DNA from: Moniliella sp. 'wahieum'
Lineage: Eukaryota
DNA: 64,000 bases
Assembly (NCBI GenBank): GCA_003971905.1
Contig: RSEE01000005.1
Coordinates: 682,001 to 746,000, forward strand
Direction: 5' to 3'
Below the pieces are notes generated by a model. The model did no database searches and was not told the DNA's origin. It saw only the letters and a program-made list of their open reading frames with translations. The stretch's first letter is position 1. Each line of letters starts with the position of its first letter. Made by a program: the position numbers and the translations under genes. This document shows positions 100 to 63,379 of this stretch, piece by piece.

Positions 100-141
100 T
101 GCATGATGCATGATGCATGATGCATGATGCATGATGCATGA
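100..141. repeat. (TGCATGA)6 palindromic heptamer array
   Basis: Six perfect TGCATGA copies; the phased unit is the palindrome ATGCAT plus G. Confidence 0.95.
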
Positions 142-1383
142 TAGGCTCCCTCTGCCCGAACCCGGAGCATGTGACTGGCCGGATGCCGGTGCCAGCGACC
201 AGGGTCTTCCGCCCGGCATCTGGCTCGGCAAGGGGTCCACACCGCACACCGAAGCCCTGCCGAAACTTGCCGATGCGGGCTACCACGGGCCACTGCACGG
301 GGGGGCAGTCAGTGCGCTTGGCGCCAGGCTGCGCAGCAGCGCTGAGCGCACGCAGCTTGGCGTTCCATTATCGCCTGCTTTTCATGCTTGGGCCGAGGCC
401 GAGCGCTGAGCAGGGGGCTCTCTTGCGAACAGCCCATGCGGCTGCGCAAGGCTGTGCGCACCGAGGGCCACAGCGCGAGGCAGGCGCAGAGGTCCACCGT
501 CGATCCTGTCATGGTCTTTCTCCTACAGCAGGTGGCTTCTGCCCAACAGGGGCACCTGCCAGACGCAGATAGCATGGGCAAGAGCATGGGGAGCGAAGTG
601 GCAAGGAAGGGAAGGGAGGAGAGAAGCGCGAGCGGCGCGACAGGGAAGCAGCAAGCAATTTCCGCGGGGGAAGAGGGTGCGCGGGTGTGCGTGCGGTTGG
701 ACATGGGATGGGCCTGCGAGTGGCTGCTGGTTGTGACGTGACGTGTGACGCCCACGCATGAGTACCACGGATAGAGTACCTGAATGGGGTGAGCGTGAGC
801 ACGGGCGCTGGGCACTGCGGCGCGGAGGCAGACGAGGGCAGGCACGCAGGAGCAGGATGCCGAGGCAGGCTGCTGGCATCCCAGACAAGGGGAGCTGCGA
901 GCGCCTGGTATGTGGGGGCGGAGCGCAGACGCTGCTAGGGACGGGGGCCGGCGAAGGCTTGGCGTGGCGCCGAACAGGTGGTGGCATGCGGGAGCTCGGC
1001 AGCGCCTGTGTTGCTCTGGTGGGTGCTAGTAGCATGCCGCCGCAGCCGTCCGAGCCCACGGGCACTGCGGCACCAGCCCACACTCGGCCACTGGCGCCCG
1101 CTCGCTTGCTCGACGCTCGAGCGCACGCTGCGGCACTGCGCAGCTGGCCTCGGCGCCCAGCCGGCAGGGCTGCTACTCGGCAGTACACTGTACAGCAAGC
1201 ACGCCAACCCAGCCCGCGGCTTCGGACGAGCGCTGCCGTCTCTGTCGTGTGCCTGGCCACAGGGCTGGGGTAGCAGGAATGGCCTCCCATGCCACTACCC
1301 TCTCCCGCTCCCTCCCCCTCCACCCCCCAGCACCACCAGCACCACCACCACCCGCCCGTCTTCTCTCCCTCTCCTTCCCTCGC

Positions 1384-3364
1384 ATGTCAGTCACCCGGGC
1401 ACAATGGACCAGCCAATTAGACCAGGCCCTGGTCGAGGCCTTTGCACAAAACACCCCTCTGTCCCAGTCGGTCCTCCTCGGGCCGCAACAGCTTTTGGCC
1501 CGCCGTGGCCCGGGCCATGCCACTGCCCATCCCCGCCAACCACGAGGACGAGCGGGAGCTGTGCGATTCGCTCCGGCATCGACTCAAGCGTCTGCGTCAA
1601 TACGCCGCTCAAATCCATCGTCTCCTCACTCACCCAGCCCAGCTCTTTGTCTGGGACCCCGTCTCCTTCAAGGTTCTCCCTTCCCCCAGCACCCCCACTG
1701 GGCCATCGGATGACACAGCCTGGGCCTGCATCGGCAATGCGACACTGCGCCATCGTCTGCGCCATTCCACCTTCCCCTGGTACCCACGCCTGGTGTTACT
1801 GCTGGATGACGAGGATCGTCGCACAGCACCCTCGCTTTGTCTCTCTCTTCCTTCCTCCGTATCCACCGAGGTAGGGAGCGAGCCATCGGCTCCCAGCTCG
1901 CTGGCTGCCGTTATTGCCTCGCCTGAAGCTTCGAGCTCAGCGCAGAGGGGGCGTAAACGCCGTGCCACCACCGCCTCCTCCTCCGCCTCCTTGTCCTCGA
2001 CTGACGACCTGTCCACACTGTTGATGAAAAGCAGGCCGATCTAGCCTTGTTGCCCAAGAAGCGTGCCGGCACCACGGACGGATCTCCTGCTGTTGAAAGG
2101 CACAGACTCAACAGTCCGGTGGGCAAACGAGCATGGACAACCGAGAGGGATGTGATGTTGGTCGAATGTTATATGGATAGTTTGGCCTCGGCCCCATCGG
2201 ATTCCTCGACCTCTGGCCCGGCGCCTGGGATTCGAAGGACGAGCAGTGTGTGGCGGGGGATTGTGCGAAAAGTGTTTGGGCCCTTGTTTGAGGCAGGCGA
2301 GGAGCGTGAAGCGGGGGATTCGGCACGGCATCGGCTCAAGAAACTGAAAGGCTATGCGGCGCAAATTCATCAGCTGCTCAAGACGACCGACCAACTCTTT
2401 GTTTGGGACTCGACCAATGCCTGCCTTCGGGTCAATACGGCGTTGGGCCACGACGAGGAGGCCACCTGGGCCAAGATTCGCAACCCCCAAGTACGCAATC
2501 GTTTGATGCGAGCTCATTATCCTTGGTTTCCACGCATCCGCATCGCCGAGTCCGACTTGCCCAGCACCTTTTACACCACCACCTTGGCGCTCACCTATTT
2601 TCAAGGTTCGCCTAGGTCACCGGTCCAAGCACAGTCTCTTCATCCACCCCGGCCCCTGCTAGGGTATCCCTCCCTCCCCTCTCCTCCCCCCTCCACCACG
2701 GACACTACAGGGGCAGACCCAGTACCCATTCGCTTATTCTGCTCGTCAGTATCCATCGTATGAGGTCCCCCCTTCATATCGTTTGCCCCTTGGCCCAGCA
2801 CATACACCGTACTTTGTTCGAGAGGAGCCTGCTTCCACAACCTGGTCCGGGGCTCGTCTGCCCCCTCTCGCGCGGAGGGACGGGCCGAGCAAGAGCTTGA
2901 CAGATCCTGCTCACCATACTGTCCTGCCCTCCCTGCGTGGCCCTCGTCGTAGCCATCCTGCTCTGCCTGCCTTGACCTGGACCGGTGCCCACCTTCTGCC
3001 GCTCGCCCATTCCGACAGACCCGTACCCTCCCACCGCTTCCTACCTTAAGAAAGCACCTTCGCCCCCGCCCTACCACTTTTCCCTTCGCCTCCCCTCCCT
3101 GACGTCCTCGCCGGAACCCGGTTTGGGAAGCGTGACGAGCAGCAGCCACATCATCCTCTCCGACATGGAACGCGGCCTGTGTGGGCCGCATCCCAGGCCA
3201 CCACTTACCTCGTGGGCCTGACCAAGCTCACCTCGGCGCAGCGGGAACTGTTTGAATCCGTTCGCCGATTCGATCCGGCCTCCTCGCTGGCCGACAGGGA
3301 AGGCGAGCGCAGGCGGGCGGAACGGGCGTATGCGTTGTTGGGCCAGCTCATACCACGTCCCTAG
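1384..3364 (+). CDS. Protein with two tandem Myb/SANT-like (Myb_DNA-bind_3-type) domains; frameshifted, internal structure uncertain
   Basis: Joined ORFs 1249-1713, 1442-2044, 2047-2763 and 3179-3364. Repeat 1: QWTSQLDQALVEAF...FWPAVARAM...LRHRLKRLRQYAAQIHRLL..QLFVWD...W...FPWYPRL. Repeat 2: AWTTERDVMLVECY...VWRGIVRKV...ARHRLKKLKGYAAQIHQLL..QLFVWD...W...YPWFPRI. Could be two adjacent genes. Confidence 0.6.
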
Positions 3365-3568
3365 CCCTCCTGCCTGGCATGCGTGCCATTTTGACTGTCC
3401 CCTCGCTCGCGCTCGCTCTTTCCCACCTTGCGGGGGCTGCCACAGCTCGGGATGTGCTACGTTGTTGTATCTATATTTCTATGGATCGGCTGATATGTGA
3501 TAGACCGCGGACAGCAGATAGGAGGGGTGCCTGTCCCGAGGTGGGAGGCGGGGCGGATGGATTTCTTG

Positions 3569-4089
3569 TTACGGGCTGGCAGGCCTACCTTCAGGATGAA
3601 GGTTGACAACAATGTTGCCCATGGTGGATTGGGAGTAGGGGCAAATGCCCTCGGCCATCTGCATCAGTTTCCCCACCGCCTGCTTGTCCGGCTCGGAGGT
3701 CAAGGCGTAAATGTCAGCGGCAAAGCCAAACAGTTTGCCCGTGTCGGGCGGGCCGACGTGCACCTCCACCTCAATCGCCAAATCGGGGGGGACAACGAGC
3801 TTGTGTTGCCGCGCGCCGAGCTGGAGCGAGGAGAAAAAGCACGCGCTCCAGCCGGCGGCCATCAACTGCTCGGGGTTCACCCCGCTCTGCATGCATGGCC
3901 CGGCACGCCCAGCTTGAGCTCCAGCCCGGCCTCGGGCACCCGCACGTGGCCCGCGCGGGCAAGACCGGCCGAGGTGCCGGTGGCGGTGTACTTGATGCTG
4001 GTCAGGTGAGCCACGGCGCGCCGCGGCGGGGCGGCAGACAGTGCGCGCGGCAGAGAAAGGATGCGCGCGGCGGGGGCACGGAGCAGCAT
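3569..4089 (-). CDS. ohr: Ohr (organic hydroperoxide resistance, OsmC/Ohr family) peroxidase with predicted mitochondrial presequence; one frameshift near 3895
   Basis: KYTATGTSAGLARAGHV (catalytic Arg region), NPEQLMAAGWSACF (Glu and peroxidatic Cys), CPYS (resolving Cys). N-terminus MLLRAPAARILSLPRALSAAPPRR is Arg-rich with no acidic residues. Confidence 0.9.
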
Positions 4090-4398
4090 GGCGGTGGGGG
4101 GGACTATCTATATCCATGACGTGCGGTTGGGGCTTGAGGTCGCATCACGTGACGCATGAAATGGCCCGGGGGAGTGGGTGGGGCGGTGGCACGTGACGGG
4201 GGCGGTGGCGCGCGAGAGGCAAGGCGGACGGGCGGAACGGGGCGGCGGAATGGGCGCGGCGCTCCGTATTCAGACGCGGGCGGAGTACTGACTAGGGCGG
4301 CCGCCTGGCTGCACCACCTGGCCCAGGGCGCCCCCAGAAGCAGAAGCGTGCGCCACCAGTCTTCGCCTGCGGCCGACGCCCCCCCCGCCCCCTCCGCC

Positions 4399-7172: not shown

Positions 7173-7177
7173 ACTGA

Positions 7178-7240
7178 GGACGGCGGACGGCGGACGGCGG
7201 ACGGCGGACGGCGGACGGCGGACGGCGGACGGAGGACGGA
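7178..7240. repeat. (GGACGGC)7 heptamer plus two GGACGGA variants, just after the SCY1 stop
   Basis: Read directly; followed by degenerate AACGAGG-type heptamers to about 7285. Confidence 0.9.
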
Positions 7241-8006
7241 ACAACGAGGAACGAGGAACAGGGAAGGAGGAACGAGGAAAGGAACATGGGCCTGGTTGCG
7301 GTGCGGTGCGCTGGTACGGTCCTACCGTCCTGGTTTGGCCTCCGTCGGCCGAGGTACAAGTAGATGTAGGTGCTTGGAAACCGGCAGAGCGGCGGGGGGG
7401 CAAGGTGCGAGAAGGAGCCAGGCCAAGGCCAAGGGCCTAATCGCCAGGGCAGCACAGCCCAGCACAACGCCAAATGCCAACGTACATGACCGGCACGCTA
7501 GCCTTTGCACTGCTAGAATCGGAGGCGGCGAGGGTGGGACGCCAATGCAAACGTCACCGCGACCGCGACCGCGAATGCCGACTAGCGCCTAGAAAGGAGA
7601 TGCCCGCCGGCCTCATGGCCTCTGGTCCTGGCGCCCCGCGTGGCGTCCTAAGGCTCAAGGTCGCTCAAGATCCAAGATTCAAGGGGGGTAAGGAACTATT
7701 GAACGTTGACCTATCCAACCAGCCACTTGCGTCGCCGCGCTACAGCGCTCGGGCACAAGGTGCATCAAGTAGGATCTAGCATCCGTCGCGTCCTCGGCGC
7801 CCTGCGGACGTCACGGGCGTCGGGGAGCTGAGGTATACTGAGTAGGCTAGGAGGCTAGGAGGCTAGGAGGCTATGGGGCTATGGGGCTATGCGACCACTC
7901 CTCTCCCCTCGCGCCTGCGCAACGCAACGCAACCATAGACGTGGCAGTGGCACACAGACACGAAGCTCCGAGGCGAGGGGGGGGAGGTGAATTTGCCACG
8001 GCAAAA

Positions 8007-8041
8007 CAAGGCAAGGCAAGGCAAGGCAAGGCAAGACAAGG
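8007..8041. repeat. (CAAGG)n pentanucleotide microsatellite
   Basis: caaggcaaggcaaggcaaggcaaggcaagacaagg. Confidence 0.85.
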
Positions 8042-8614
8042 TAAGGTGGTAAGGTACCTGGTACATGGTACAGTGGTACAGAGGCCAAGGGTGGCCGGTG
8101 GCATGGCCATGGCCATGGGCATACCAACCCAACCAAACAAAAAATGGTCCAAAAAGGGCAGAAAAACAAGCTGAATGGGCAAGGGGGCGCGAGGGAGCGG
8201 CGCAAAACGGTAGCAGTGCCGTTCAGGGTCAGTAGGGAGCGGTGGTGAGAGTGAGAGTGAGAGCGAGAGCGCGAGTGAGAGTGAGGAACGAGGATGAAGA
8301 GCGAGAGAGAGACTGAGAGCACGGGTGGGAGCGGGAGCGGCAGGGGGGGGAGAGGATGCTCGATGATGAGAGCCGGGACAAGGTCCAGTTCAGGGCAGCT
8401 AGGCCGACGTGGGACATGGCGAGACGTAGGAGGTAGGACGAGACAGGGGATGAGGGTCCTAGGGGTTTGGTGAGCATCGGCCCAGCGCCTCCTTGCTCTT
8501 CCCTTTCCCTTGTCATTCCGCCAGCCAACGAACGAGAGCATAGGGGGCAGCAGTGGGAACTCTAGGAGAGCGCGCGCGCGCGATAACGAGAGAGGGGAGA
8601 GAGAAAAAGAGAGA

Positions 8615-10868: not shown

Positions 10869-11399
10869 GGGTGGTGGTGGGGGGGGGGGGGCGGCTGTGG
10901 CTGTGGTGGTGGTGGCGATGGCTGTGGCGGTGGTGGTGTGATGGGCGGGTGCTGCTGCTGGTGATGGTGGTGAAGAGGAGGGTGCCGGAGCAGGCAAAGG
11001 CGTGGCTGCGCAACGGCAGGCGTGGGAGAGCCCCCCACAGCTCCAACCCGCTCCAACCCAGCTCCCGAGCCGATGCGGTGGCCGCCAGCGTCACGCGTCA
11101 CGCGTCATGCATGCGCCATGCAATGCCTCCCTGCAGTGGGCTGACAGTGGCAGGGTGCTGCGCATGCAGCTGAGCTCAGCACCGCGCTGGGCTGCCACAC
11201 CCGCTTGCTCCACCAGCGCTTGCCCCCACATGCCCGCGCGCCGCCCCCGCCGCTCCACCGTCGGGCATGCCTGCCAGGGGCTGTCGCCTCCTGCCGCCCA
11301 CCCACGGCCGATCCCAGTAAGCTCTGCATTCAAGCATACACGCCCCCTCCCTTGCAACTTCACAGCTCCACCCTGCCCAACCCACCCGCACGACGGTGC

Positions 11400-11420
11400 G
11401 TACTGAGTACTGAGTACTGA
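11400..11420. repeat. (GTACTGA)3 palindromic heptamer array
   Basis: AGTACT palindrome plus G spacer. Confidence 0.85.
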
Positions 11421-12556: not shown

Positions 12557-12903
12557 GGGTAGGGTAAATGCGGCGGCACTGGGGACGGGTGGTTGGTGGA
12601 GGGCGGGGCATGAAGAGGAGAGGAGGCAGAGGAGGGAAAAAATACGCGCTGGCTTAAGCTGCTGATTAGCGCCGACGCCCAGCACTGCGGGAACGCGTCA
12701 CGCGTCACGTCGGTCCCAGCGGGTCTTTGAGCACTTTGAGCGGGGCAGCGCATGCAGCACTCTGCACGCCCCGCGCGGACCAGCCGATCCCACTGCCCCC
12801 CTTAACCCAGCAGGTAGAGTGGCCCAGTGGCCGCCCTGTGCGCCGAGGATGGGGGCAGTGTCCTAGCGCAGCCAAAGCACATTACAAACTGCACAAAAAA
12901 GAA

Positions 12904-12975
12904 TGGACGAACAGGGAATTGAACCCCGGACCTCATGCATGCTAAGCAAGCGCTCTACCCCTGAGCTATCCGCCC
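12904..12975 (-). tRNA. tRNA-Ala(AGC), no intron
   Basis: Reverse complement GGGCGGATAGCTCAGGGGTAGAGCGCTTGCTTAGCATGCATGAGGTCCGGGGTTCAATTCCCTGTTCGTCCA. G3:U70 Ala identity pair; T6 Pol III terminator at 12895-12900. Confidence 0.95.
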
Positions 12976-17342: not shown

Positions 17343-17423
17343 GGACGGCTGGCGCAATGGTAGCGCGTCTGACTACGACTGGTTGTAATCAGGAGGTTGC
17401 AGGTTCGACCCCTGCGTCGTTCG
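17343..17423 (+). tRNA. tRNA-Arg(ACG) with ~9-nt intron (17379-17387)
   Basis: GGACGGC TG GCGC AATGGTA GCGC G TCTGA CT ACG A[ctggttgta]A TCAGG AGGTT GCAGG TTCGACC CCTGC GTCGTTC G; T-run terminator near 17445. Confidence 0.92.
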
Positions 17424-20600: not shown

Positions 20601-21397
20601 ACCCACCGGGCACTTGGATTAGCATGTTGGATCTTGGGTCCACCGGGGTAGACCATTTCCGTACCACATGATTCAGGCTGAAATCCATCTCGTAGTACAC
20701 CAAAAGCTGCCACCAGAAAGTAACCAGCAGTTTCGTCAGTAAAAAAAAGAAAAAGGGTATCGAGCAAGCAAGGACCATACCTTTGGTGTTTGATCGAACG
20801 CCTCCCCCGTTGGATCGCGGTCCGCCTCCTCGTAGTCCACCTCGAGCGCTGCAAAGATCGCATTTTCGTACCCCACATCCAACGCGCAAATGGTGGTGAT
20901 GATCGCATGCGGACGCTGGGCCTCCAGTGGAGAGGAATGGTAAGTTTGGCCTGCGAGTCGCGGTTCAGCACATAGACCAGCTTGGACTTTTCCACAGCTG
21001 CCAGCATCACCGCTCTGCCCTTGGGGTCCACTGCGACATACTGGCCGGGTACGACGCGGCGGGAGCCGGTGCGACCAAAGGCGTGCCAGTGGACCTGGAT
21101 GAACAGATTGCGTGCCGGCTCGTACTCGAGGATCACGACGCCTCCCGCATCGGACCCAACGACAAGATAGTCTTTGTTCCGTCCCACCAAATGGAAGGCA
21201 GCGATGCTGCGGATGGTGGCGAACGCGTTCTGCTCGCAGACAGTGACCAGCTTGCCCGTCTCCGTGTCGGGGCGGAGGAGCTGGAAACGGGTGCCGAGGG
21301 CCAGCACGATCTCCTGCGTACGCGTCCCGGAGAAGGAGCCGAGGGCGATGCCGTTGATGGCGGATGCCTTGGAGAGCGTCAAGGACAGCAAACGCAT
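17669..21397 (-). CDS. RSE1: Pre-mRNA splicing factor RSE1/SF3B3
   Basis: [80 protein letters not shown]. Intron 20707-20780; spliced length about 1,200 codons, as expected for SF3B3. Confidence 0.97.
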
Positions 21398-21938: not shown

Positions 21939-23523
21939 CTATTGGCCCTTGCGCTCCTGGTCGCGCATCCGGATTTGGATCCGCTCGATCGCTAGCAGGC
22001 GCTCGGCGAGCGTGGGGTGGGAGTGGCGCATGGCCGAGTAAAGAGGGTCGTTGTGCATGGCCGACAGGTTCTGGGTGCCGAGTTTGATGAGCGCTTGCTT
22101 CAGCAGCTCAGCGTACCCCTTGGCGTGGGTCTGTGTCAACACACTCACCGCCTCCTTCGCAGGCACCCCTGCCGCCTCGGCCTGCTTTGTCGTCTCCTCA
22201 ATCTCGCCCAGTGTCGGTGCAGGGCGGGAGGCATAGCAAGCAAACGCATCAGCCTGGTACTCAATCCGACGCACGATTGCATTCAGCACAAACTCAATCA
22301 CCGTGTCAAGTGGCGAGACGACAAGTTGGAACAGCTCCATACCCACAAGGACAGGGAGACGTCCCCGGGCCCTGTGGGGAACCCAAAGGCGTGGAAGAGG
22401 GCGTGGTTGTGGATAAAGAGCGCCAGAAGAACCATCTGGAACCAAATTTGCAGCTGGGCGACCAGCATCAGCTTGAGGTTATCCTTGTGAGCCCAGTGCC
22501 CCAGTTCATGCGCTAACACGGCCTCGACCTCGTCGGGTGTGGCCTTGTCAATTAGAGTGTCGTACAGCACAATGTGCTTGGGCCCGCCAGGGAGCATGCC
22601 GTAAAAGTAAGCGTTGCTGTGGGACGAGCGACGCGACCCATCAATCACGTACACGTGCTTCAGAGGAAATTGAAGCGAACCAGCCAGAGCAAAGACTCGC
22701 TCCCGCAAAAGGCCATCCGGCAAGGGAGTGAGCTTGTTGAACAGAGGTTGGATCAACAGAGGATAGAGAACCTGGGCAATCAGGATCCAGACCAGCAAGA
22801 ACGCGGCCACATACGTTGCAAACGAATCACCAGCCCAGCGAATGATCCAAACAATCGCTGCGATAAAAGGGGAGCCAATCACAAAGCTCATTACCCAGGA
22901 GATCAGGGTGTCCTTGACGTAGATGGCTGGCGTCAATTTATTGAATCCGTGTCGCTCCTCAACAACAAAGTGGTAGTAATGTCCAATGGCATGTCGGGAA
23001 TTGTCTTGACGATGAACATAACCGACACGTAGACGATCGAGCGGACAATCTACTCAAGGACAGCAGCTAGCAGTAATAGTGGGAATAGCAGCGTAACAAA
23101 ACAACAGTTACAGGAGTCGTCAGTGAAGGTGCCCAAGAGGTAGGCAAAATCGGGTCGACACGTACCTCCGAGCCCGCATGAACCCGAGCCACGCCAGCAT
23201 CTCACCAGCCACACGCCAGAGGGCGGCGAAGCCATTGGTGTAGATTAGCGCCAAGCTGGTCCGGTATGCACGGCAGCTTTGACAAAGTTGAAGCGGGCCT
23301 TGTCACGACTGTAGGAGGAAGCTTTGCGGTACGTTTCCAAGTCCACATGGGCCGCCAGCGCGGCCGGGGGCGTAGGGTGGGAAAGAGGCGGTACTGCCGC
23401 AGCCCAACGTACGTCTCGAAGGCCCAGACAAGCAAGACGGTGGTGAGGATAACAGGTTTCCAAGGACCGTCTCGTCGTCTGCCACCGTTCGGCATGATCC
23501 GTGAAGGACTTGACCGCGTCCAT
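21939..23523 (-). CDS. STE24: CaaX prenyl protease 1 (M48 zinc metalloprotease)
   Basis: IDGSRRSSHSNAYFYG, HIVLYDTLI, HELGH (HExxH), EYQADAF, HSHPTLAERL. Intron 23050-23165. Confidence 0.95.
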
Positions 23524-45600: not shown

Positions 45601-45869
45601 TGCGAAAAGCGGCGTGCTTGGAATGAAACTTTTGATGGTGGAAGATGGGGTTGGATACTGGGGCCACCGTGAGAGAGTGGCCGAATAGGCTGCTCGTGGC
45701 AAAGTATCCAACAGGGTGGCGAGCTGAGCGCACTGAGTAACCGAGGACCGGGCGTAGGCCGTAGGACTCATCGACACCAACCAAACTTCGCAGCCGCAAA
45801 ACACGCCGGGGTAAGCGCTGGGCCCTGGAAGCCACCGAGGGGCCGCACCGAGGCCGCAAGAATGGCGTC

Positions 45870-46665
45870 CCTGACCGGTGACCTCACCAGTGATTGTGTG
45901 ACCGGTCTCCTACGGTGATCAGTGACTAGTGACTAGTGACTAGTGACTACGGTAGCAGTACCAGTACCGACTTCTACGGAGTAGTGACTTCAAGCTACCC
46001 TAGTTACTAGTTACTAGTGATCAATGATTATCGATTAGTGGCTTCAAGCTTCACTAGCACTAGTGAGAGCTAGTGAGGCCGAGAAGAAGCAAGTCAGCTA
46101 GTCAGATAGGGGGGTTTGACGAGATCAGTACTAGGTTCCTGTGGCCATCAACGAACAGTCGTTAGGCTTGTTAGGCCTTGGGGTTCCAGCGCCCAGCTCC
46201 CGCATTACAGAAGAGCTGAGCCGCTGATGCAGATGTGTGATGGCGTGGACGTGTCCGCGGTACCGCTGGTAATCACCGGCTTCAGGGCCCACACGTTCAC
46301 GGGAAGGCGCGGCAAGTTGGAAGGGTTTAGCTGAAGAAGACCTAAAAAAAACTAACGCCTGTGACTACTGGTAACTAGGAAGTAGTAACTAGGAACTGCC
46401 GAGGGGCCGGTGAGCCGGGTGGAGGGGCCTGCTGCGAGGCAAGGCCTTGGTGACGGAGCGAGGAGGCGGTGGCGGCAATCGGGAAGGGATGTGGCTGGTG
46501 CGCTGGACGAGCACGGGGGCGGACTGAGTTGGCGAGGGGATGGCTGGTGGCTATTGGATACTGGATGGCGCTGCGATGGGGACGTGTGCGCTGTGACATG
46601 TGGCATGTGACATGTGACAGGTGACCGGTGACATTACGTCGGGCAGCACCCGTGACACTGTGACG
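45870..46665. repeat. Second cluster of palindromic-heptamer arrays (ACCGGT, ACTAGT, ATCGAT, AAGCTT, ACATGT)
   Basis: 45922-45949 (GTGACTA)4; 46001-46020 tagttactagttactagtga; 46593-46632 gtgacatgtggcatgtgacatgtgacaggtgaccggtgac. Confidence 0.8.
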
Positions 46666-47128
46666 CGGCAGACACATGGCAGATCGATGGCAGGGCGGAG
46701 GATGATATCACCGCTCGACCAGAGATCATGCATGCATGCCCGCCGTGCTTCCGCTGCATGCGATGCGGGCCAGCGGCGGGCAGGGGGGCAGTGCCGGGGC
46801 GGGAAAAAAAGGAGGGAAATGCTGGGGTTGGGCGCTGCTGGCTGGTGCCGCCTGGGGCTGGCCAGGGCGGCGTGCGGCCTGAAGGCAGCGCAGCACAGCA
46901 GCTGACCGCCCGTGGCTAGCGGCTGGCGCCGGGCGCCCCGGGCGGCTGGCGGCTAATAGCACGCGGCTGCCACCTGCGCTTTTCCCCAAACCACCATCCG
47001 AACGACACCCACGTCAAGAAGCAGCCACCCAGGCCCCGCCCCGCCCCGCCGCCCACACCGTCCGCCCCCGCCTCACCCGCCACCGCCACCGCCACCGCCG
47101 CCTCCATCGCGCCCTCACCCGCACCCCT

Positions 47129-48765
47129 ATGCTGAGTACTCCATCACCCTACCCCCTGGTGGAGACCGGCGGTCCAATACCAGACGACGCCCAGATCGAC
47201 CAGAACCGTGCCTCCATCAATGTCGACTACCTCTCCCACCAGTGGACCGACGAGGATGTGTGGTCCAGCTGGAAGGCCATGACCAAGAAGAAGCATGAGA
47301 TTGCCAACGGTATCCGTCTCGAGAACGCCTCCTGGCGCACTTGGGCCAAGCAGCGTGGCAAACTCAAGACCATCTCCCCCGAAACACTCAACTGGTGCGT
47401 GCCTTCTCCTCGTCTCTTTTGTTTCCTCCCCCCCCCCTCTCCTTTTCCCGGTTCTAACCTGGACCTCCCTGTCTGTTCTCTTCGTTCGTAGGCTGAAGGA
47501 CAGCGACGTTACCTGGCTCTATGGACCTTTGCACGAGCACGCGGACCCCGTTCCGCCACCCAAGGTGGCTAGCGTCTCTGAACGCTTTGGCCTTGACTTG
47601 GGCCACCCTGGCACCCTTGCTGCCAGCCCTTCCCTCCCCCCTTTCCAGAGCCAGAACCAGACCGGCGTCACCGACGGCGCTGCGCCCGAGGCCTACCCCC
47701 CGTCAAGCGTCCGGTGGACGAGAGTGGGAACTTGATGGTGGAGGGCAGGGCGCCATTTGCCCATGCCGGATTTGGAGGGTACGTGAACAAGTCGGGCAAA
47801 AAGTCCATCCTGAAGCACCGCACGATTGGTGATATCCTTGCCCACCCGGGCGAGCTGGCCGTGCCGACGACTGAGCTGGGTGCAGCCAGCAGGGAAGAGA
47901 GTGATGCCGAGGGAAGTACCAGCTCCCACCTTGACAAGGGCAAGGCGCGAGCGAGCGATAGCGACGACGGGTCCGATCCGCCCAAACGCCACATTACCTT
48001 CAACACACGTGTTGAGCAGTGCATTGCTCTCGACCCGCTCGACGTGGATGATGAGGCCAGCTCGGAAGGGAGTGTAAGCAGTAGCGAGGACGAAGGCCTC
48101 ACCATCCCTCGCGCTGGCTCGAGAGAACGTCGGGCCAGTGCCGTTGTTCCCGATGACCCCCCTTCCTCTTCCTCCTCCTCCGGCACGCATTCCACGATTG
48201 CCATGCTGGCACCCACACGACTCAAGGCGTATGGACCCATGGCGCGGGGTGCTCCACATGTGGTTGACCCTTCTGGCTTTGTGTTGGATGAAGAGGAGTA
48301 TGGGTACGACGAGCCCGCCGCTCGCACCTGGCAGCTGGTCGATGACGACGAAGAAGATGACGAGTACTACCCACGAGGGAAGATTACTACCACGATGGCA
48401 GCGACGAGTACCTCCCTGCCACGGGGGAGAGCATGTATGACGACGATTTGCGTGACGAGGCCGACATTGATATGCTGCCCCCAGCCCCGGTAACCTATGC
48501 CAGTCCCAACTCTGGGTCGGGAGCTGGGTTTGGGTCTGTGCCTGCCTCGGGCCCCGGCTCCGGGTTGGGCTCGAACAGCAGCACTCCTCCTGGCGAGGCT
48601 GAGCCGAGGGGCAGACCCTCGCAGCGCTCCCACTCAACGTCGGAAGAACGGATGCAGGATGCGCGCCGACCCGGCCGGCGGTACAATGGGTCGTACGCCG
48701 CTGCCGCCGCGGCGTCGTTGCCGTCCAAGTACGAAGGCGGCACCAGCTTAGACTATACCGCGTAA
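47129..48765 (+). CDS. REG1-like PP1 regulatory subunit (DUF1752 domain)
   Basis: VDYLSHQWTDEDVWSSWK..RLENASWRTWAK..ISPETLNW|LKDSDVTWLYGP across intron 47395-47491; KSILKHRT; RHITF (RVxF-like PP1 docking motif) followed by VEQCIAL. Confidence 0.85.
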
Positions 48766-49208: not shown

Positions 49209-50159
49209 GGTGCGGGGGCCAGCCTATGGCCTATGGCCTTGCAGCCATGCTCAACAGTGCGACACCACTAACACCACCTGGATGTTGTGCTCGTGGTAGT
49301 GGCGTTCTTGTTGTCCACAGCCGGAGGTCCTCTCGTTTCCGTTACGTTGGCTTGCCATCACAAATCCACCCAGCTTGAGTCACTCCGTCATAGGAAACCG
49401 CGATAGCGCGATAGCCGGCAGGTCCTCTGCTGTATACTTGCCAGTGGCCGTTCAACGGGGTTATGTATACGACTTGGATGTCCAACCCCACAAAGACAGC
49501 AAGCGCGTACACTGTGATGGGCGTGAGAACCTGTGCGCCAGGCATGGGGTCGAATGGGAGGTCCACTCGGTGCAAGGATACGCCGTTTGAGGAAAAAGAT
49601 GAGCGTACTGGCCTGGTGGGATCCCATTTCACACGCACGCCGACGGTCAAACGGAAAGGTAGGAGATGGAGTTGTGGGTTTTGGTGGATTGAGAGGCGCT
49701 ACAGTAGGCCAGTCTGCAACAAAGGAAAGAAACAGCAAAGGGGGGTGCTTCGCGGACCTCCCGGACCTGCTTGTCCCCGGTTGCCCCCGGAACCTCCGTT
49801 TCTCAACGGGGGCACAGCAGTAGACACAATCGCCTCTATTTGGCCAGCACACAAATACGATCGGTCTCAGTGTACCAAGGAACCCAAACTTGTTATTTAA
49901 CGTAACGCATGAAGCGAAGCAGACAAGCGAAAGAAGGGGGATGATTGATGAGAAGACATGTGAGAAGGGATGGCGACAGGTGCGTGGAGAGAGAGAGACC
50001 GGATGAAGGGTGAAAGGTGTCAATGATGGGGGGTGAAGCCGGTGAAGAGGCAGAGGCAGAGGGAGAGAGGAATGACGAAAAATGCAAGGGTGGAGAGAGC
50101 TTAAAGAACAGTGTGGTTGAAGCGTTGACCAATGAAGCTAAAAACGAACCATTCAGGTA

Positions 50160-52470: not shown

Positions 52471-53884
52471 TTAGTTGTGTTCCTTGAGAGGTGTGGCCTG
52501 GCCGGCCTTGACATTGCCCCAGCCAATCAGACGCCAGTGCTTGTCCACCCGGCGCGACAGCGCCACTTTTTCGTCGTAGTCCGCGCACACCGGCTTGGTC
52601 AGTGCGATTCGGACCATGTCCGCCTTGATCGACAGCACCCTCCCGCCCGTGGTGAGGGAGCCAATCGAGAGCATCAGCACCTCGCCCGCCTCCAGCTTGC
52701 GCACCTTGACCTGCTTCTTGTCGTCCGACGCCACACCCAGCAGCCGCGCAAGAGGAAGTAGGACAGCTCCAGTTCATGGTACACCGTCGGCAGCGACCCG
52801 GTCTCACCGAGCACCTGCCCCACAATTCCATCTCCGCGACACAGCGTCGGGTCCATCTTGGTCCCCGCACCAATCAGCCCACCTGGCACGGCAAAGTCCA
52901 AATTGTTGTGTTCGGCGTGGAGCGAGACAACACGGGTTTGGATCGGCATGGTGAGCAGGTTGCCCTGCTCATCGCGCGTGCTCAACCCGGGTCGCACCTC
53001 CACCTTCTGTCCCACCTTGAGCACACCGCGCAGGATTGAGCCTCCTGCCACACCACCCTGCAGCTCCTCCACCTCCGCTCCTGGCTTGTTGACGTCAAAG
53101 GAACGGATGATAATCAGACGCGCCGGAGCGGTAAAGTCGCGGAGGGGGATAGGGATGGTAGTGACCAATTGTTCCAGAACGGCATCAATGTTGTACTTGA
53201 GCTGGGCACAGATGGGCACAATGGGCGAGTTGGCCGCCTGGGTCTTGTGGGTAAACCGCTTGATTTGCCGCCAGTGTTCCTGGGCCGCCTCTTCGCGGAT
53301 CAGATCCACCTTGTTTTGCAGAATGATAATGTGGTCCAGGCGCATGATCTCAACGGCAGCCAAGTGCTCGGACGTTTGCGGTTGCGGGCACGGCTCGTTC
53401 GCCGCGACCAGGAGCAAGGCAGCGTCCATGACCGCCGCACCGTTAAGCATAGTGGCCATAAGAATATCGTGCCCGGGACAATCAACAAAGGAGACGTGGC
53501 GAACGAGGTTGAGGGTGCCGCCGCACCCGGGACGCTCACACTTGGGGTGGTCTTCCTTGTCGCTGGGGAAGGAGGCGTAGTTGCCTGGGCGCAAACAGGA
53601 CGGGTTGTCGCATTTGTAAATCTTGGCATTGGCGTACCCAAGCTTGATCGTAATGTTGCGCACCAGCTCGTTCTTGAAGCGGACCGTCTGGACACCCGAG
53701 ATGGCCTTGACTACGGTCGACTTGCCGTGGGCGACATGACCAATGGTGCCAATGTTAATGGTGGCCTGGCGGCGGATGACCTCAGGGGGAGAGGGGTGAG
53801 GGCGTCGGCGTTAACGCTGATGTTGCGGACGCCATCGGTGATGCTCTCGATGGTGGCGGGGGCCTGGAGCTCGTCAAAAGCCAT
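52471..53884 (-). CDS. GCD11: Translation initiation factor eIF2 gamma subunit
   Basis: [83 protein letters not shown]. No intron seen; about two frameshifts. Confidence 0.96.
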
Positions 53885-54651
53885 GGTGCGAGAAGAGGTG
53901 GTGGCGGCGGCGTGTGGGCAAAAAAGGCGGGCTGGGCAGATGGCCGAAGAAGGCAAAGAGGAGACACAATATTTTGCGGGCTGACGTAAGACACTCGACA
54001 CCTCCCCCCTACGGGCTGCTGGGTGGGCGGAGGGCAGGCGGACACGGGTGAGTCAGCGGAGGCGGGCTAACCCTAGTGCGCCTGCCTGTGGAGTTGGCTC
54101 GGTGGGATCGCAGCGGTGGTGCTCGCCAGTCACGCGTCACGAGTCACTCCGTCCCAGGCGGGCGAGAAAGCTTCGGCGGCGGTTGGATCGTGTGCCTGCC
54201 GACCGGCGCTTGCGTCAGCTCCTCCACCAGTGTAGAAGGCCCTCGCAGGGGGGGCAGGCTGACCAGCGTCTCGCGCTGGTCTCCTAATTGAATAATGAGC
54301 TAGCTCGGACCGAAAACGGATGAACGAAGAAGAACACCTCCGGTCCACTCTGGGCATAGTGCCCACAGCAACAAGCAGCATCTACGGAACAAGGAGTGGA
54401 GAACAACGGCTGCCGTCATGCATGCCAATACTTAGAACAAATCAGCCCAATCTGGGCTTAACGGCCCGGTGGCACACGCAGTACGGCAGAATGGCAAACA
54501 CGATACACCACTCAGTCCAAACACACATATCATCAGCAGCTGCTTACTTACGCGACACCTCAACAGGCATAAGGTGTCACGGATACGATCGTCTAATCAA
54601 TCTTCATGTCCAAGGCAATCTCACCCAAGGCAGTTCCAGGTCCCCGGCGAC

Positions 54652-56817
54652 CTACTTGCGCTTGTTCTTCTTTTTCTTGTTTTTGCGCGGCCCCGTGCCA
54701 CGGGAGAGGGAACCGTAAGGGGTGGATGTGGTACTTGAGATCCCCTCCGAAGGCGGTTTGTCCTTGACCTCCGCCTCGTCCGCCTCGGCCGCACTGGTCC
54801 CGTTTTCGGGCGCAGAGACCGTTTCACCGGAGCGGACACATTTCCGTGCCCGCCGCGGGAACAGACGAGGGGGCATCCCGTTCCTCCTCCGGCTTCGATT
54901 CCGGCTTCTTCGCTTCCGGCTCCGACTGAGGCGAAGGCGTAACCACCTTTGATGTGTCGACAGCCTCTGCCGCTGCAGCCGGGACTGGCTGGCTGCCTTC
55001 TGGGGACAGTGCCTCCACCGCCTCAGCCACTGGCTCTTCCGTTACTGTCTCCTTGGCTGTCGAATTTGCCTCCGCCTCCGTCTCAGCCGGAACAGCCAGA
55101 ATTGGAGTTGCGGCTGGTGCAGGAGTCGGCGCGGGAACCTGCGATGAGGCGCGACGGAGCTGGAGGTGAAGTAGGGAGGCTGGGACGTTTTCTGAACCCG
55201 AGGTGGAAACACGACGAATGGTTCCGTCGCCAGGCACGGTGAGCAGGTCGCCCGTGCTGATGGCCGAGTTGGAGCGGGACCGTGAGTTGGGCAATGGCTC
55301 TTGCTCCGGGGTCCAGGTGGCAGTGCGCTTGATCTGCACGCGGCGGAGCGGGGCATTGGCAAGGGAAGAAAGGGTGGATGTGGTGCCGGAGGTACCTGTG
55401 CCAGTCTGGTCGTTCAAGGGGGTGAGAGGACTGGATGCCTTGCCCCCGATTGGGCGGGGGAAGGGAGCCCAAATGTGCTCCGGCGGGCGGGGATGCGCTT
55501 GTTGCGGCGGCGCTCGATAATGCCCCGCACCAAAGGCTGCCATGCACCTTGTTTGGCGGCGGCAGAAGCATTGTGGGGTTGAGAACGGGTGACCTTGACC
55601 TTATTGTGCACATCGAGATAGACGTCAAACTCATCCACAATCTCGCGTCCAATCATTCCTCAATCACGTCTTCAAGCGTCACCACGCCCAACGCACCGCG
55701 GGGCTCGCCAGGGTAGTCCGAGACAAGTAGCATGTGCGACCGGCCCTGCTGGAAGTAGTTGAGACAATCAAACAGGGTGAGCTCGGGTGGAGCTTCGGGC
55801 AACGCAGCAAGCTGGAAGCGGGAAACTTGCTCGGCGTCCTCGGGGTCATACGAGATGAGGTTCTTGACGAGGAGCATACCCAGCACGGCGTCCGGCTTGC
55901 CTGGTTCATGTACGGGGATGCGCGAGTAGCCGTGGTGAACCAACGTTGCCACTCCAGCCTCGTCCAAGACCGCATCTGACGGCAGCGTAAACAATCCTCG
56001 ATCGGCGTCATAATGTCCTTGACTGTCTTGTCGTTCAGGTCGAGCACGGCTCGAATGATGGTCACCTCATCGTTCGTCAACGTTTCTTCACCCAGCGCCT
56101 GGTGCAACGAAACAAAGGTCTTGAGTTCGGCCTTGCGATAAACAGTACCATGTTCTTCGCCCAGGCACCAGTCGAGCAGTTTCGCCGTCGGCCAGGCAAT
56201 GGGCGCGAGGAGAATCATGACTGCATGCACCATAGGTGCACAGTACGCGCCGATCGCCAGACCATACCGGGCACAGATGGCCTGTGGGACGATTTCACCA
56301 AGATGACAATGAGCAGGGTCGATGTCAACACGGCACTCAGACCGCCGCCAAAATCAGAGAGAAAGACGGGCAGCGTTTCATTCACAATTACGTTGCCCAA
56401 GAGGGAGAACGACGAGGACCCAGTGTCGGCCCTTCTCGAGCAGATTGAGCACGACGCGCGCCTCGCGTTGCTCAGACTCGGTACCACTTGTACTGAGGAC
56501 TTGAAGGTTGACCATATCCAGCCCCATGAGCCCCAGTGTTAAGCCGGCAAAGACACCGCCGAGAAGGACAAGACCTGCGATGCTGAGCAGGCTCATGATC
56601 AGCTGGGCGTCGGTACGGGGTGGGGCAGGCAGCGTAGAGCCGCCATGGCCGAGGCTGGAGACGGGGGCGGCGGCAAGGAACGGCAGCAGAGGGAGGGCAG
56701 CGATGGGGCGGGCGGCGAGGAGGAGGGAGAGGAGGCCGTGGACGAGGCGGGCGCGGGTGCGAGGGCGTAGGCGGGGCCCAGGCGCGACCAGCTGGGCGGT
56801 GGGGGGGGCGGGGGCAT
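54652..56817 (-). CDS. MAM3: CNNM/DUF21 plus CBS-domain membrane protein (MAM3-like)
   Basis: LVLLGGVFAGLTLGLMGLD, LLGNVIVNETLPVFL, YRKAELKTFVSLH, GYSRIPVHEPG, FQQGRSHM, GVVTLEDVIEE. Confidence 0.9.
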
Positions 56818-57564
56818 GCGGGGGGGGGTGGCGGGGGTGGTGGGGGCGAAGACGCAACGGGCGGTCGAATGTTATTTCTTGCCACTCGCCCTCTCGCTCT
56901 TCCGGCCTCGTCCGCCCGATTCAGGCGGCAGAGGGCAGCAGAAGAGCGGCAGACGCACGGGGCAGCATCCAAGCGTAAGAAAATGCTTGAAGCCTGACGC
57001 ACAAAGCCTAATTGGCCTCATGCATCATGCCGCAGACGCCCGCAAGAGACGGGGCTAGGGTTGTCCATGCGCTCGTGTCACCATGTCACCACATGTCAAC
57101 ACGCGGTCAACGCACCCTGTCCGCCATATTGGCGTACAATACTTAGTACTTATGGCCAACACACCCGGCACAGCGGTCTCCATGCTCAACTAACACCGGC
57201 GCCGGCTTCCCTCGCACGCTCCGCCGGCCCCTTGCGCATGTGGAGACGGGGAACAGCCAGCAACCCACGCGAGCGCTTCCGCCGTGCCCTCAAGCATTTG
57301 AGGGTGGCTCGATTCGTATCCGCAAGCTTCGCTGATAATCGTAATCGATAGCAATCGATCGGAGAGGCCGATCCCACCTTTTTTGTTGCTCGGCAGCTGG
57401 CACACCCTCCGATGACTCCGAGTATCTCTACGAGTATCTCCGGACGCGCTGCTGCCATTAATCAGCATTTGTCCCACGCAAGCCAACCGCTCGAAGCCTC
57501 TCCTCACGCACCGTCCATCCTTCTTGCGGCTCCAGGCCTCCCCTCCTGTCTTTCCAGTCCTCCC

Positions 57565-58037: not shown

Positions 58038-58607
58038 AAAAACCGAGCCATACCCATCTCAATCCCGTTCCCTCTTCACACATGGCGCGAAGAATGCAAC
58101 CTGGTGCCGGCCAAACGAGGCATGCCGCTCTCGCGCTATGCAGTTGGTGCGCCCCACCCGTTCTTTGCTTGACTGTGAGCGGGAATGGTCTCTGGTTGTC
58201 CGTGTCCCATGTGATCGGGTGGGATGTGTCTGGAGGTAGCATGGTGAACAGAGAGACAGTTTGTTGGAGGCATCGTTGGAGAGAGTGGGGGGTGGAATGT
58301 CCTCGGCTGAATACATTTCCCACACTCCTATTGCTGAGGCCAAAGGAAAACAAAGCCAAAAAGCGAAGCCAAATCCGAGCCGGGCAAAGCCGCAGCTAGG
58401 CACGTGCCTCCGCGTGTGGCGCAGCCTCGTTAGCAGGCGAAAGGACGCAACTGCTGTTTGACTGGGCGGAACACCGCACAGACACCTGAGGCCTGTCAGT
58501 CCACAGGGCAATCTAACTTTCCGCGCTCGTTCTCACGCTCGTTACGCCACCAGCCATCCCCCTGCCGCCCCGACACGCTCCAGCCTTATCATCACCAACA
58601 TCCTCTG

Positions 58608-60950: not shown

Positions 60951-61936
60951 CATGTGGACAAGCACCGCTGCCTATCCGGGAACCCCCGCTCTTTACTATG
61001 GTCCCACCAAACACGTTGAATGGCCTCGTATCTACCTTTACATTGTCATACCCCATCTTGTTTCCTCCGTGGTGGATCCCCCTCGTCCTATGTGGATCTA
61101 AAGTCCAAATCACCGCCCCGCTCCTCTCCCTCCCCCACATACTCACCTCCCTGAACAAAGATGCATTCCCTCGTTGGCCTTCAATTCCAACAAGGCCGCC
61201 TTTCCTGCACAGGGTGGATAATGCGGGCCACCGCCACTGGGGGTGCATCAGGCTTCGGCCACTTCTCGGGGACGATCACTCGAGGTAGGATGGGAACCAC
61301 ACGAGTTAGGACAGTGGCCCCACAGGTCCCGTATCCCCCAGTAGTGTGTATCCAGGTGAAGGAAGCTAAGCGCTCTTGGGTTCTAGGAGCAGAGTGATGG
61401 CCCTATCTGCTCACTCGCCTGAACCTATAGGCCGCGAGGCCTTCTCCCAACCTACCCCATCCGCACCAACAACAATTGCAGACCAAGATGAGGAAGGGAG
61501 GCAATATACCATCCCTGTGTGAGTTCATGTAGATGGGCTGACCTGCGATTTCTATCTTGACAGCCTTTGCCGCAGATGAGCGAATGGATCGAATCCAAAA
61601 CTAGAAAAAAGCCAGGGATGCGTGGGGAACATCGGATAGATAGAAGTAAGACGTCGGAGAGAGAGAAGGGGAGGGAGATGAGGAGGTGCAGCACAGAAAG
61701 ACAAGCTTGGGTCGAGAGACCAAGAAGCATAAGCGGACTTTGCCAGCGACGATGGTAAGACCGGAAAAAGAGGGATGTCAAACCCAACCCCCCAGCGCGT
61801 GGGGCGGTATATACATAGAGCTTGTCAAGCAAGGTGGGGAAGATGTGAGTCCATGAGAATGCGCCCGAAATGAAGGCCGGGGCAGGTATGGCGGGGCCAG
61901 GTGCGATAAAGTAAAGAAGAGGTGCGTGGATGGGGC

Positions 61937-62400
61937 TTAGTGGGCCAAGCCATGAGTGGCCGCCGTCCGCTCGGCTTCGAGACGTTGCTTGTTGGCTTGG
62001 AACGCCGCGTGACGCACTTGGTCTTGCATTGCACACTTGTGTTGCTCCGGCAGGCGGTGTTGGGCGCAGAATTGGAGCTTGCAGTGCGGGCATTCGCCCA
62101 CCAGCCGCACCGCAGCATCCCGGCACTGGGCGTTGGCACCCTCCTGGGTCAGCTGGCCTGCATTGTGTTGGCAGCGCTTCTTGCCTCCGCCGCGGAGGCG
62201 GAGAACGAGCGCAGGTCGTCGGACGGGAGCGACTCGGCATCGGCGACCCACGAGTGGGTTGCGGGAGAGAAGAGCCGCTGCTCGTCTACCGCAAAGCCAG
62301 CTAGGCCGTGGAGGAGGGCCTTGGCCTGGGCGCCGGTGGCGCCAGCGGGGAGGGAGAGGGGCCAGGCGTGGCCGGACACGGAGCGGACAGTGAGCTGCAT
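61937..62400 (-). CDS. Ubiquitin-like domain fused to AN1-type zinc finger
   Basis: MQLTVRSVSG..VDEQRLF, frameshift, LVLRLRGG-GKKRC..C..ECPHCKLQFCAQHRLPEQHKC (AN1 pattern). Confidence 0.85.
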
Positions 62401-63379
62401 GGCGGAGGGGGGGGGGTCAGGAGGGGAGGAGGCAGGACGGCAGGCAGACGAGGGAAGGCAGAGGGGCAGGGGGCGTACGAAAGCGAAGGGCGGGGGAGGA
62501 GAGAGAGCGGAGGCGGGAGGCGGAGGTGGAGGTGGAGGAGGAGGAGGAGAAAAAGAGGGGGAGGTGTTATCGGGGCTGCTCAGCGGGGGCGGGGCGCTGG
62601 TTCGAGGGGCCAGGCGACCTGCCGTCTGGGCCACAGCCGGCCGGCTGAGGAGAGCCTGCGACTGCGTTGGTGAGTGCCTGGCGGAGGCCGCGTCAGCGCG
62701 CCAGCCTCAGCCCGACGCCACACATTAGGTCAGCACCCCCCTCACTCGTCACTTGTCCATGCCACTCGCCGGCTGTTCCTGAGCCCTGCAGCACGGCGCC
62801 AGTGTGTCTCCCTGCATGTCCCACATGACATCATCGCCATGGCGATCTTCCGTCTTCGCCATCATTCGTCAGCGTCATGCATCATTCACGCACGCCTCGC
62901 CTCAGCGCCTTGCGCTGGCCTCCATCACCGATCCGCCTCGTTCAGCCATTCGGCCCTTTCAGTCGGCGTACTCAGATCCTCAGAATGCACTCCATTCTGA
63001 ACTCGGTCTGAGTCTTGCATATTCCACCGTTTTTCTCCGCAGCTTCACCCGTCACGGCACTATACTGCCTTGGCCAGTTTCGGCCACTTTTTCGGCAGGC
63101 TTCGGCCGTTGCTTCGAGACCATTGAGGTGGTGCGCTCTCTTGCTTGATCTTGTGCGCCTTTTGCCAACTCATGTCCGACATCAACGTTCAACGTTCAAC
63201 CCATACACTGCCATGCTGCGCATGCTATGGGTCCTATCATAGTGGCAATAGCTACTCCGCATAGACCAATCGCATCTCAGATCTCTCACACCCATCCTCT
63301 AGGAGCCCCCCGGCGCGATATAGAAGCACTAAACATTTGGCAGTAGGCCATGGCTCGAATCAGTAGTTACTCGTTGCCA

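Follow-up and report, generated by a model that had tools for sequence, protein, structure and literature searches.

The DNA between genes in a 64,000-nucleotide stretch of the genome of Moniliella sp. 'wahieum' (assembly GCA_003971905.1, contig RSEE01000005.1, positions 682,001 to 746,000 of the forward strand; below, the window) carries short repeats that obey a single rule. A trinucleotide T-N-A and the two bases X and Y that follow it stand twice, separated by the mirrored complement of these two bases, TNA XY Y'X' TNA XY. We write the seven bases around a site as Z W T N A X Y with T-N-A central, use the prime for the complement and V for the base preceding Z, and name the scar classes +7, +8 and +9 (periods 7, 8 and 9) after the bases gained. 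This seven-letter pattern is real and genome-wide. With little more than even confidence, we read the repeats as excision footprints of a cut-and-paste transposon with a 7-bp symmetric target.

The window is part of contig C5; the assembly totals 69.5 Mb in 223 contigs. The analysis drew on about 0.3 Mb of sequence: the window and 60 kb past it (together 124 kb), 140 kb of contig C27 and a handful of short loci. Contig C27 is collinear with C5 and represents the second haplotype; their alignment contains 113,898 matches and 2,861 mismatches, the haplotypes being about 2.5% apart. In addition, 1,197 one-base insertions or deletions (indels) were counted in about 117 kb aligned (about 1%). These disrupt the genes of an SCY1-like kinase, a Gti1/Pac2 protein and FEN1 differently in each haplotype, as in an unpolished assembly, so gene breaks should not be read as pseudogenes. 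A fragment of the SCY1-like kinase shows 64–68% identity to proteins of Tilletiaria, Thecaphora, Ustilago and Tilletia, with closer matches at 96% and 86%; judged by this comparison, the host would belong to the Ustilaginomycotina.

Within the window, a palindrome of the type A....T followed by one base and the identical palindrome occurs 26 times, compared to 0.06 times in 100 block-wise dinucleotide shuffles (1-kb blocks). The corresponding pairs starting with C, G or T occur 0, 1 and 0 times, and mixed pairs of A....T palindromes 9 times vs 0.41 in the shuffles. All 17 positions at which a preceding inspection of the letters (the sequence-only reading) had quoted a palindrome hold it, exactly or a few bases off. 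That inspection had described tandem arrays of period 7; the period was retained, while the basic unit turned out to be the 12-base scar given above, and the sister periods 8 and 9, unlisted there, bring the window total to 64 loci. Counted on both strands with overlaps, TNA XY Y'X' TNA XY occurs 117 times in 124 kb (0.8 in shuffled sequence) and 132 times in 140 kb of the other haplotype. Genome-wide, ATGCATGATGCATGATGCAT was found 493 times and its reversed sequence 0 times; TGAAGCTTGAAG, a 12-mer obeying the rule, was found 5,310 times, its reversal 3 times and a non-palindromic core of the same composition 21 times. The +7 loci number 50 in the window and 65 in 124 kb, about one scar per 2 kb. 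By scaling, the 12-base rule is estimated to have about 65,000 matches, at about 35,000 loci, per assembly; a comparable density was not found reported in the literature searched.

The rule is sharp. With two-base arms, the alternative centres ANT, CNG and GNC yield 0, 3 and 2 cases in 124 kb, and a TA centre yields 3 vs 1.0 expected; TNA with one-base arms occurs 7 times vs 7.9, with three-base arms 0 times, and spacings and arm lengths other than those of the rule lie at or near chance. Beyond TNA the flanks exhibit no further fixed bases except those of adjoining units. The middle base N tracks the background (G or C in 40 of 55 vs 76%), and single-mismatch variants at the first T match the substitution spectrum of the genome, as decay would. 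Since 86 of 104 ten-base cores copy the left or the right flank, the core is templated locally; an origin from the terminal bases of a transposon was ruled out by the same count. Arrays of pure-AT cores had been reported absent by the sequence-only reading, which is incorrect: TTAA occurs at 32174, 43852, 44055 and 44138, AATT at 32905 and ATAT at 49039. Altogether 15 of the 16 possible cores are present in the window, and the sixteenth, TATA, in the flank of the other haplotype.

The size of the duplicated unit follows from the sister classes. Identical TNA triplets are in excess at distances of 7 (161 vs 17), 14 and 21 bases and also at 8 (41) and 9 (43), with no enrichment of complementary triplets at the same distances. 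Pairs at distance 8 have the form W TNA XY Y'X' W TNA XY and those at distance 9 the form ZW TNA XY Y'X' ZW TNA XY, the mirror insert comprising two bases and now and then three. Across 169 kb, 277 second copies start directly with TNA, 28 include one upstream base, 12 two and 1 three (0.7, 0.3, 0 and 0 expected), and the lone three-base case is also readable as three mirror bases plus two. The base added in +8 scars equals W in 28 of 32 cases and in 13 of the 15 in which a homopolymer error is impossible, by which such an error was ruled out as the origin of this class. The two bases added in +9 scars equal ZW in 12 of 26 cases, and the three bases added at +10 match in 1 of 5.

For the core GTAC these classes could be followed through the whole genome, where the +9 pattern occurs 214 times (18 reversed) and the +10 pattern 37 times (5 reversed). 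In a hand tally of the first 100 of the 214 +9 rows the spacer equals ZW in 49. The spacers AC and GT, which may also come from arrays, account for 67 of these rows, 31 of them matching ZW; rows with other spacers match in 18 of 33 cases (p about 1e-12 against 1/14). At +10, three upstream bases are matched in 4 of 37 rows, every one with the spacer TAC, and in 0 of 25 with other spacers; six rows keep ZW, and the added base is never V. The second copy thus stops at two upstream bases, and the duplication covers the seven bases ZW-TNA-XY, with N at their centre, and extends no further. Several such scars occur in both haplotypes: the +8 scars C TAA TGCA C TAA TG (33343–33356, plus strand) and C TCA GATC C TCA GA (62971–62984, plus strand), an array of +8 units C TCA GCGC on the minus strand (30681–30710), and the +9 scars GG TCA ACGT GG TCA AC (32223–32238, minus strand; the full 7-bp unit twice with a two-base mirror insert), AC TGA GCGC AC TGA GC (33616–33631, minus strand) and CT TCA CCGG CT TCA CC (50032–50047, minus strand). 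A further +9 scar, AC TGA GTAC AC TGA GT, lies at 45059–45074 on the plus strand.

Comparison of the haplotypes revealed individual events. Seven-base indels number 39, compared to 19, 25 and 21 indels of five, six and eight bases, and 13 of the 39 fit the model exactly (control centres 4, 0 and 4). Of 120 indels of 7–18 bp, for which one or two rounds of the rule were allowed, 10 that differ from plain tandem copies are reproduced exactly by the rule (0 for each of the three control centres); with one mismatch permitted 16 fit, compared to 0 for the controls, and 18 are plain tandem copies. In the window, empty alleles are present at 32131–32137 (TAA GG GC, plus strand; TAA GGCC TAA GG GC in the other haplotype) and at 58496–58502 (TCA GT CC, plus strand; TCA GTAC TCA GT CC in the other haplotype), whereas the scar TGA CCGG TGA CC at 33760–33771 and the TTAA scar at 44138–44149, both +7 on the minus strand, face an empty allele. 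The AGCT unit at 44064, part of a mixed array described below, is absent from the other haplotype. At 44851–44858 (TGA AG TG, plus strand) the other haplotype carries two AGCT units (+14), and a +16 event is found at 46042. The +14 and +16 events are 3–5 mismatches from a tandem copy, yet exact under the rule. One event outside the window could be polarised as an insertion, a paralogous repeat copy having the short form, and the others would presumably run in the same direction. None of 56 four-base haplotype indels fits the TNA model, and by inspection no excess of TNA-related double substitutions was seen among 48 isolated dinucleotide differences.

The joints themselves behave like products of end joining with an apparent microhomology bias within the unit. 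In +8 contexts Z equals X' in 15 of 29 cases, and both flanks match (ZW = Y'X') in 13 of 53 isolated +7 contexts, as in CG TCA CGCG TCA CG at 12696–12709. Outside the unit, V equals X' in 2 of 16 +9 contexts (Fisher p 0.012 for the contrast of inside and outside).

None of the 50 +7 loci lies within the 31.6 kb of gene and element spans read from the window sequence. Instead, 29 are located in the 5.6 kb upstream of a gene for a Gti1/Pac2-family (WOPR) transcription factor (28400–34015; 388 TNA sites, with +8 and +9 loci in addition), and the gene (34016–35544, plus strand) is scar-free inside. Another 11 are located in the 3.3 kb upstream of another gene (43801–47129; 187 TNA sites, with +8 loci at 44120, 44620, 44877 and 46092 and a +9 locus at 45059). 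Taken together, the upstream stretches contain 40 loci among 575 TNA sites and three 3' stretches 0 among 128 (p 0.0005); in long promoters 7% of the TNA sites bear a scar. At 36 of 65 loci the same 12-mer is found in both haplotypes, which, combined with the absence from genes, excludes a reading artefact. Separately, a second pair of Gti1/Pac2 genes on contigs C9 and C18 (L013/L014) shares 72–74% DNA identity over 1.2–1.6 kb with window positions 34004–35563. This suggests an older duplication beneath the two haplotypes, and the region upstream of that pair is likewise scar-rich.

The sequence-only reading had considered a dedicated mutational process by template switching at TNA sites. A dedicated process at TNA with a hairpin-like step is supported by the haplotype indels and the fixed geometry; the +8 and +9 classes point towards a 7-bp staggered, symmetric event with end joining more than towards simple template switching. 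In the mechanism that we favour, a transposon would insert mainly in open upstream DNA at ZW-TNA-XY with a 7-bp stagger, and fill-in would duplicate the seven bases. Mutator and Hermes elements prefer open promoter DNA. On excision each flank would be sealed as a hairpin precisely at the junction, and a host nuclease would open it 2–3 bases from the tip, leaving the mirror bases Y'X' and sometimes Y'X'T. Artemis, for example, cuts hairpins open about two bases away from their tip. End joining would then retain one mirror overhang and take none, one or two bases off the other end; the +7 joint would use the T/A match of the TNA centre, and the +8 and +9 joints would retain W or ZW. Since the TNA centre always supplies the T/A match, +7 would be the main product. 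Because the scar retains its target, repeated hits from both sides and later slippage would yield homogeneous as well as mixed period-7 arrays. The mixed array AA TGA TTAA TGA AGCT TGA AG (44055–44075, plus strand), with TTAA and then AGCT on one TGA, has the form expected if a single TGA was hit once from either side. The sequence grammar and the haplotype indels that reproduce it exactly, the limit of 7 bp, the upstream location and, with a weaker contrast genome-wide, the microhomology bias are observed directly; an element between the copies, a covalent hairpin and the host enzymes are what we infer.

Several observations weigh against this proposal, among them that its element was not found. 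None of the large haplotype indels in 124 kb carries a TNA-centred 7-bp duplication; they represent pieces resembling solo long terminal repeats (LTRs), one tRNA-derived repeat resembling a short interspersed element (SINE), one non-LTR element and one CACTA-like element. Scans for terminal repeats with duplications over about 0.3 Mb, about 0.4% of the genome, gave no convincing element, only scar arrays and chance pairs. The Pfam profiles PF05699, PF13359, PF10551, PF18758, PF12940, PF18759, PF21787, PF04937 and PF18802, which cover hAT dimer, DUF659, PIF, MULE, KDZ, RAG1, Plavaka, P-like and CxC1 domains, had no match in the genome; for six of the nine the positive controls were also without match, and since Pfam missed an active CACTA-like family as well, these blanks weigh little. 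This CACTA-like family (about 25 copies; terminal repeat beginning CACGGGCG) was itself ruled out as the source of the scars: 7 of 10 copies are flanked by 2-bp duplications and 3 of 10 by mismatched flanks, none by 7 bp. Its copy in the window, a DNA transposon of about 4 kb of CACTA/Mirage type at 36111–40083, is present in this haplotype only and has reading frames unseen by Pfam, 23-bp subterminal repeats at 36201–36314 and a right end without the outer terminal bases. The scars hold counterevidence too. Seven new 7-base events differ from plain tandem copies by a single mismatch each, and 36 of the 100 GTAC +9 rows have an AC or GT spacer without a matching upstream pair and need a second round or slippage. 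Core frequencies depart from the local background (GCGC 4 vs 16.7, TATA 1 vs 8.2, TGCA 26 vs 14.6). Among the clean +9 rows of the genome, 7 of 18 have V = X', by which the contrast between inside and outside is weakened (pooled 9 of 34, near background), and two-sided mirror joints are nearly absent, with one each at distances 10–13. The source of the scars may be rare, extinct or divergent, or there may be no element at all.

Known superfamilies were considered as candidates. PIF/Harbinger transposons have TNA or TWA targets, make 3-bp duplications and encode a DDE_Tnp_4 transposase. They were rejected because the duplication reaches 7 bp, TNA-TNA pairs at distance 3 are at background (108 vs 101.7) and PF13359 has no match. 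Elements of the hAT superfamily usually duplicate 8 bp, and those of Ac/Ds type leave a palindrome whose centre is the complement of the lost terminal base. A strict hAT of Ac/Ds type was rejected because the palindrome here is even, unlike that of Ds, and no hAT dimer or DUF659 match was found; Repbase includes hAT families with a 7-bp duplication (PMC4455052).

The alternative that deserves most attention, although we regard it as rather unlikely, needs no element. Starting from a nick just 5' of T, W or Z, a polymerase would displace the strand as far as Y and copy two or three bases of the flap, and the flap would re-anneal and be ligated, with a loop of 7–9 bases left over; the product is a miniature inverted triplication with AXY direct, inverted and direct. 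Such a single-strand template switch yields identical +7, +8 and +9 products and accounts for the near absence of two-sided mirror joints. It predicts terminal pairing, in line with the Z = X' matches in +8 contexts, and by the same logic V = X' in +9 scars, for which the local and genome-wide counts together remain near background. PMC13334657 describes DUP/IN/DUP structures from Okazaki-flap errors, and PMC5677150 palindrome extension in rad27 yeast; the published events are much larger and of varying size (PMC13334657; medians of 148/160/148 bp, with inverted parts starting at 20 bp). The flap model leaves unexplained why T-N-A is strict, why the turn always falls two bases past A and why an upstream limit of two bases mirrors it, and replication errors should not shun 3' intergenic DNA. 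The FEN1 gene is present in both haplotypes, both halves of its product match FEN1 structures, and its frameshifts differ between the haplotypes like the errors of the assembly. No loss of repair genes is evident from domain-level counts in the genome (XPG_I 12 matches including FEN1, MutS_V 21, uracil glycosylase 1, dUTPase 5). The five dUTPase matches are located on four contigs and the uracil glycosylase is single where haplotype pairs are expected, which may reflect frameshifts. A version of the flap model based on uracil or long-patch repair was rejected because it explains the T and leaves the +8 and +9 classes unexplained. More doubtful than the flap switch is a host nuclease without any element, which would cut nnTNAnn in open chromatin with a 7-base stagger and hairpin the end, with V(D)J-like joints building up as a result. 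It shares the grammar of the excision footprints and agrees with the failure to find an element. The genome has two PF02992 matches, on contigs C17 and C34; the gene on C17 (L163 2680–5740) encodes a CACTA-type transposase without terminal repeats, looks domesticated and has scar arrays in its own upstream region. A RAG-like nuclease encoded by the host, perhaps a domesticated transposase, might continually write V(D)J-type joints into promoters and seed expandable repeats, a proposal that we hold to be just as doubtful. By our reasoning, a plain staggered cut would hardly produce a complete duplication together with a zero-loop mirror join unless fill-in came first, a step that insertion and then excision provide.

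The remaining explanations are far less probable. Selection for arrays of TGA/TCA/TAA half-sites of a transcription factor at 7-bp spacing, also raised by the sequence-only reading, is very improbable. It would suit the strong clustering upstream of genes, chiefly of a WOPR regulator. Opposed to it, none of the 16 cores and none of the four middle bases is missing, the middle bases being in background proportion, and complementary half-sites are at 19 vs 15.5 at distance 7 and not clearly enriched at 3–5; the haplotypes have only 36 of 65 loci in common, and the copying of ZW by the spacer in +8 and +9 scars is left without account. Ordinary 7-bp tandem duplication with slippage, its palindromes resulting from chance point changes, is slightly less probable again. 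The seven near-tandem events, the multi-unit arrays and the 18 plain tandem indels are what it expects; the excess of palindromic over non-palindromic cores (5,310 vs 21), the lack of enrichment at other centres and the +14 and +16 events are not. Slippage explains the growth of the arrays, not their birth. We attach next to no weight to a sequencing or assembly artefact: one-base indels and frameshifted genes do abound in the assembly, but identical 12-mers and several +8 and +9 scars recur in both haplotype contigs, and the scars avoid the genes, where one-base errors do occur.

Returning to excision footprints, the scars work much like those with P nucleotides, by analogy with known systems, at a scale and regularity that we did not find reported. 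MULE, Transib, hAT and RAG flanks form hairpins that host enzymes open and join (PMC5499845), and flank hairpins and end-joining footprints are documented in PMC5499845 and PMC1978519. The footprints of MULE Muta1, Transib and hAT Ac/Ds as well as RAG P-nucleotide joints have in common with the scars a duplicated target of fixed length, mirror bases that continue the flank, variable trimming of the other flank and, less clearly for the scars, microhomology-biased joins (PMC5499845, PMC1978519). The scars differ in their 7-bp target with a TNA centre and in that no element or transposase was identified here. The Muta1 hairpin, 43 + 43 bases, has no central base, like the scars (PMC5499845); MULEs produce 8–10-bp duplications and Muta1 excises precisely in more than 90% of events, both unlike the situation here. 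Ds footprints have an unpaired centre (Table 1 of PMC1978519), whereas the scars are even, XY/Y'X'.

Small inverted triplications caused by failure of FEN1/Rad27 show the same direct-inverted-direct build and instability by slippage; with a median of 148/160/148 bp, a 30-bp spacer and 6-bp junctions they vary in size and are absent in wild-type yeast (PMC13334657). Palindrome extensions in rad27 yeast are described in PMC13493898 and PMC5677150, the available portions of which contain no such fixed rule, and AT-rich centromeric triplications in an Aspergillus preprint (10.1101/2025.01.14.632981). In contrast to small inverted triplications, the scars consist of segments of 3–5 bases without spacer in one TNA-specific geometry, in a genome with a FEN1 gene. 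We know of no case in which short-range template switching or quasi-palindrome correction is tied to one trinucleotide or geometry. Both share with the scars short inverted copies of neighbouring sequence (PMC5453318, PMC7954356, PMC5677150). Topoisomerase II duplications of the ID_TOP2A type share a staggered cut with end joining, and are plain 2–4-bp duplications without a mirror insert, the scars duplicating up to 7 bp (PMC8795545, 10.1101/2020.05.22.111666). Heptanucleotide microsatellites likewise grow and shrink by whole units; here the seed arises anew from a templated rule that all 16 cores share. The sequence-only reading had known of no description of the rule, and we likewise found none in the literature searched, which was covered incompletely. 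Outside this genome, at least 121 metagenome loci contain a four-unit AGCT array, four of which had one further rule 12-mer of another core; among the metagenome loci listed, which are not a survey of fungi, no second genome obeying the rule was seen.

Further arrays in the window are (TGA TGCA)n with five cores at 102–141, missing at this place in the other haplotype, TCA CGCG at 11089–11107, TGA GTAC at 11402–11420, TGA CTAG at 45921–45948, a mixed CATG/CCGG array on TGA at 46606–46631 and TCA ACGT at 63182–63200. Purine-rich microsatellites in 3' intergenic DNA at 7178–8319 (GGACGGC, AGGCTAGG, CAAGG, GTGAGA) vary in length between the haplotypes and contain no TNA scar. The window further contains tRNA-derived SINE-like repeats at 32709–32869 and 30241–30353 (B-box-like, CCA, minus strand, by eye), with many copies in the genome; the copy at 32709 is missing from the other haplotype. 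A 100-bp dispersed repeat with small hairpins (29980–30080) has two more copies in the 20 kb that follow on the contig and others at many loci. Relative to the window, C27 has solo-LTR-like insertions of 844, 219 and 293 bp at 33162, 49425 and 57304, with duplications of about 5 bp without TNA, and a 3.5-kb non-LTR-like insertion at 31296 (L021), which contains reverse-transcriptase-like motifs and has related fragments in L002, L016 and L030. The ordinary genes encode an OsmC/Ohr protein (3563–4090), tRNA-Ala (12904–12975), tRNA-Val (17343–17423), a CPSF_A-domain splicing factor (17669–21397), a CAAX protease (21939–23523), a SacI-domain phosphatase (24400–28200), a GTP_EFTU-family factor (52510–53885) and a CNNM protein (54640–56820). 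Three small tandem reading frames occupy 1404–3363, the first two of which seem related by eye (R-LK--AAQIH-LL stretch in both).

With this grammar, alignment alone is enough to test the question, and the same scan is applicable to any genome. The rule implies that there should be a transposase not yet described whose 7-bp target is centred on TNA, or a host nuclease with this property. If the scars are footprints, tens of thousands of hairpin repairs can be read and dated in this genome, which would provide natural data on the opening and joining of hairpin ends in a fungus, a gauge of cut-and-paste activity that leaves no element, and a direct origin for an entire class of microsatellites. 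Should the nuclease without an element prove true instead, the process would be a heritable, enzyme-defined diversifier of fungal promoters.

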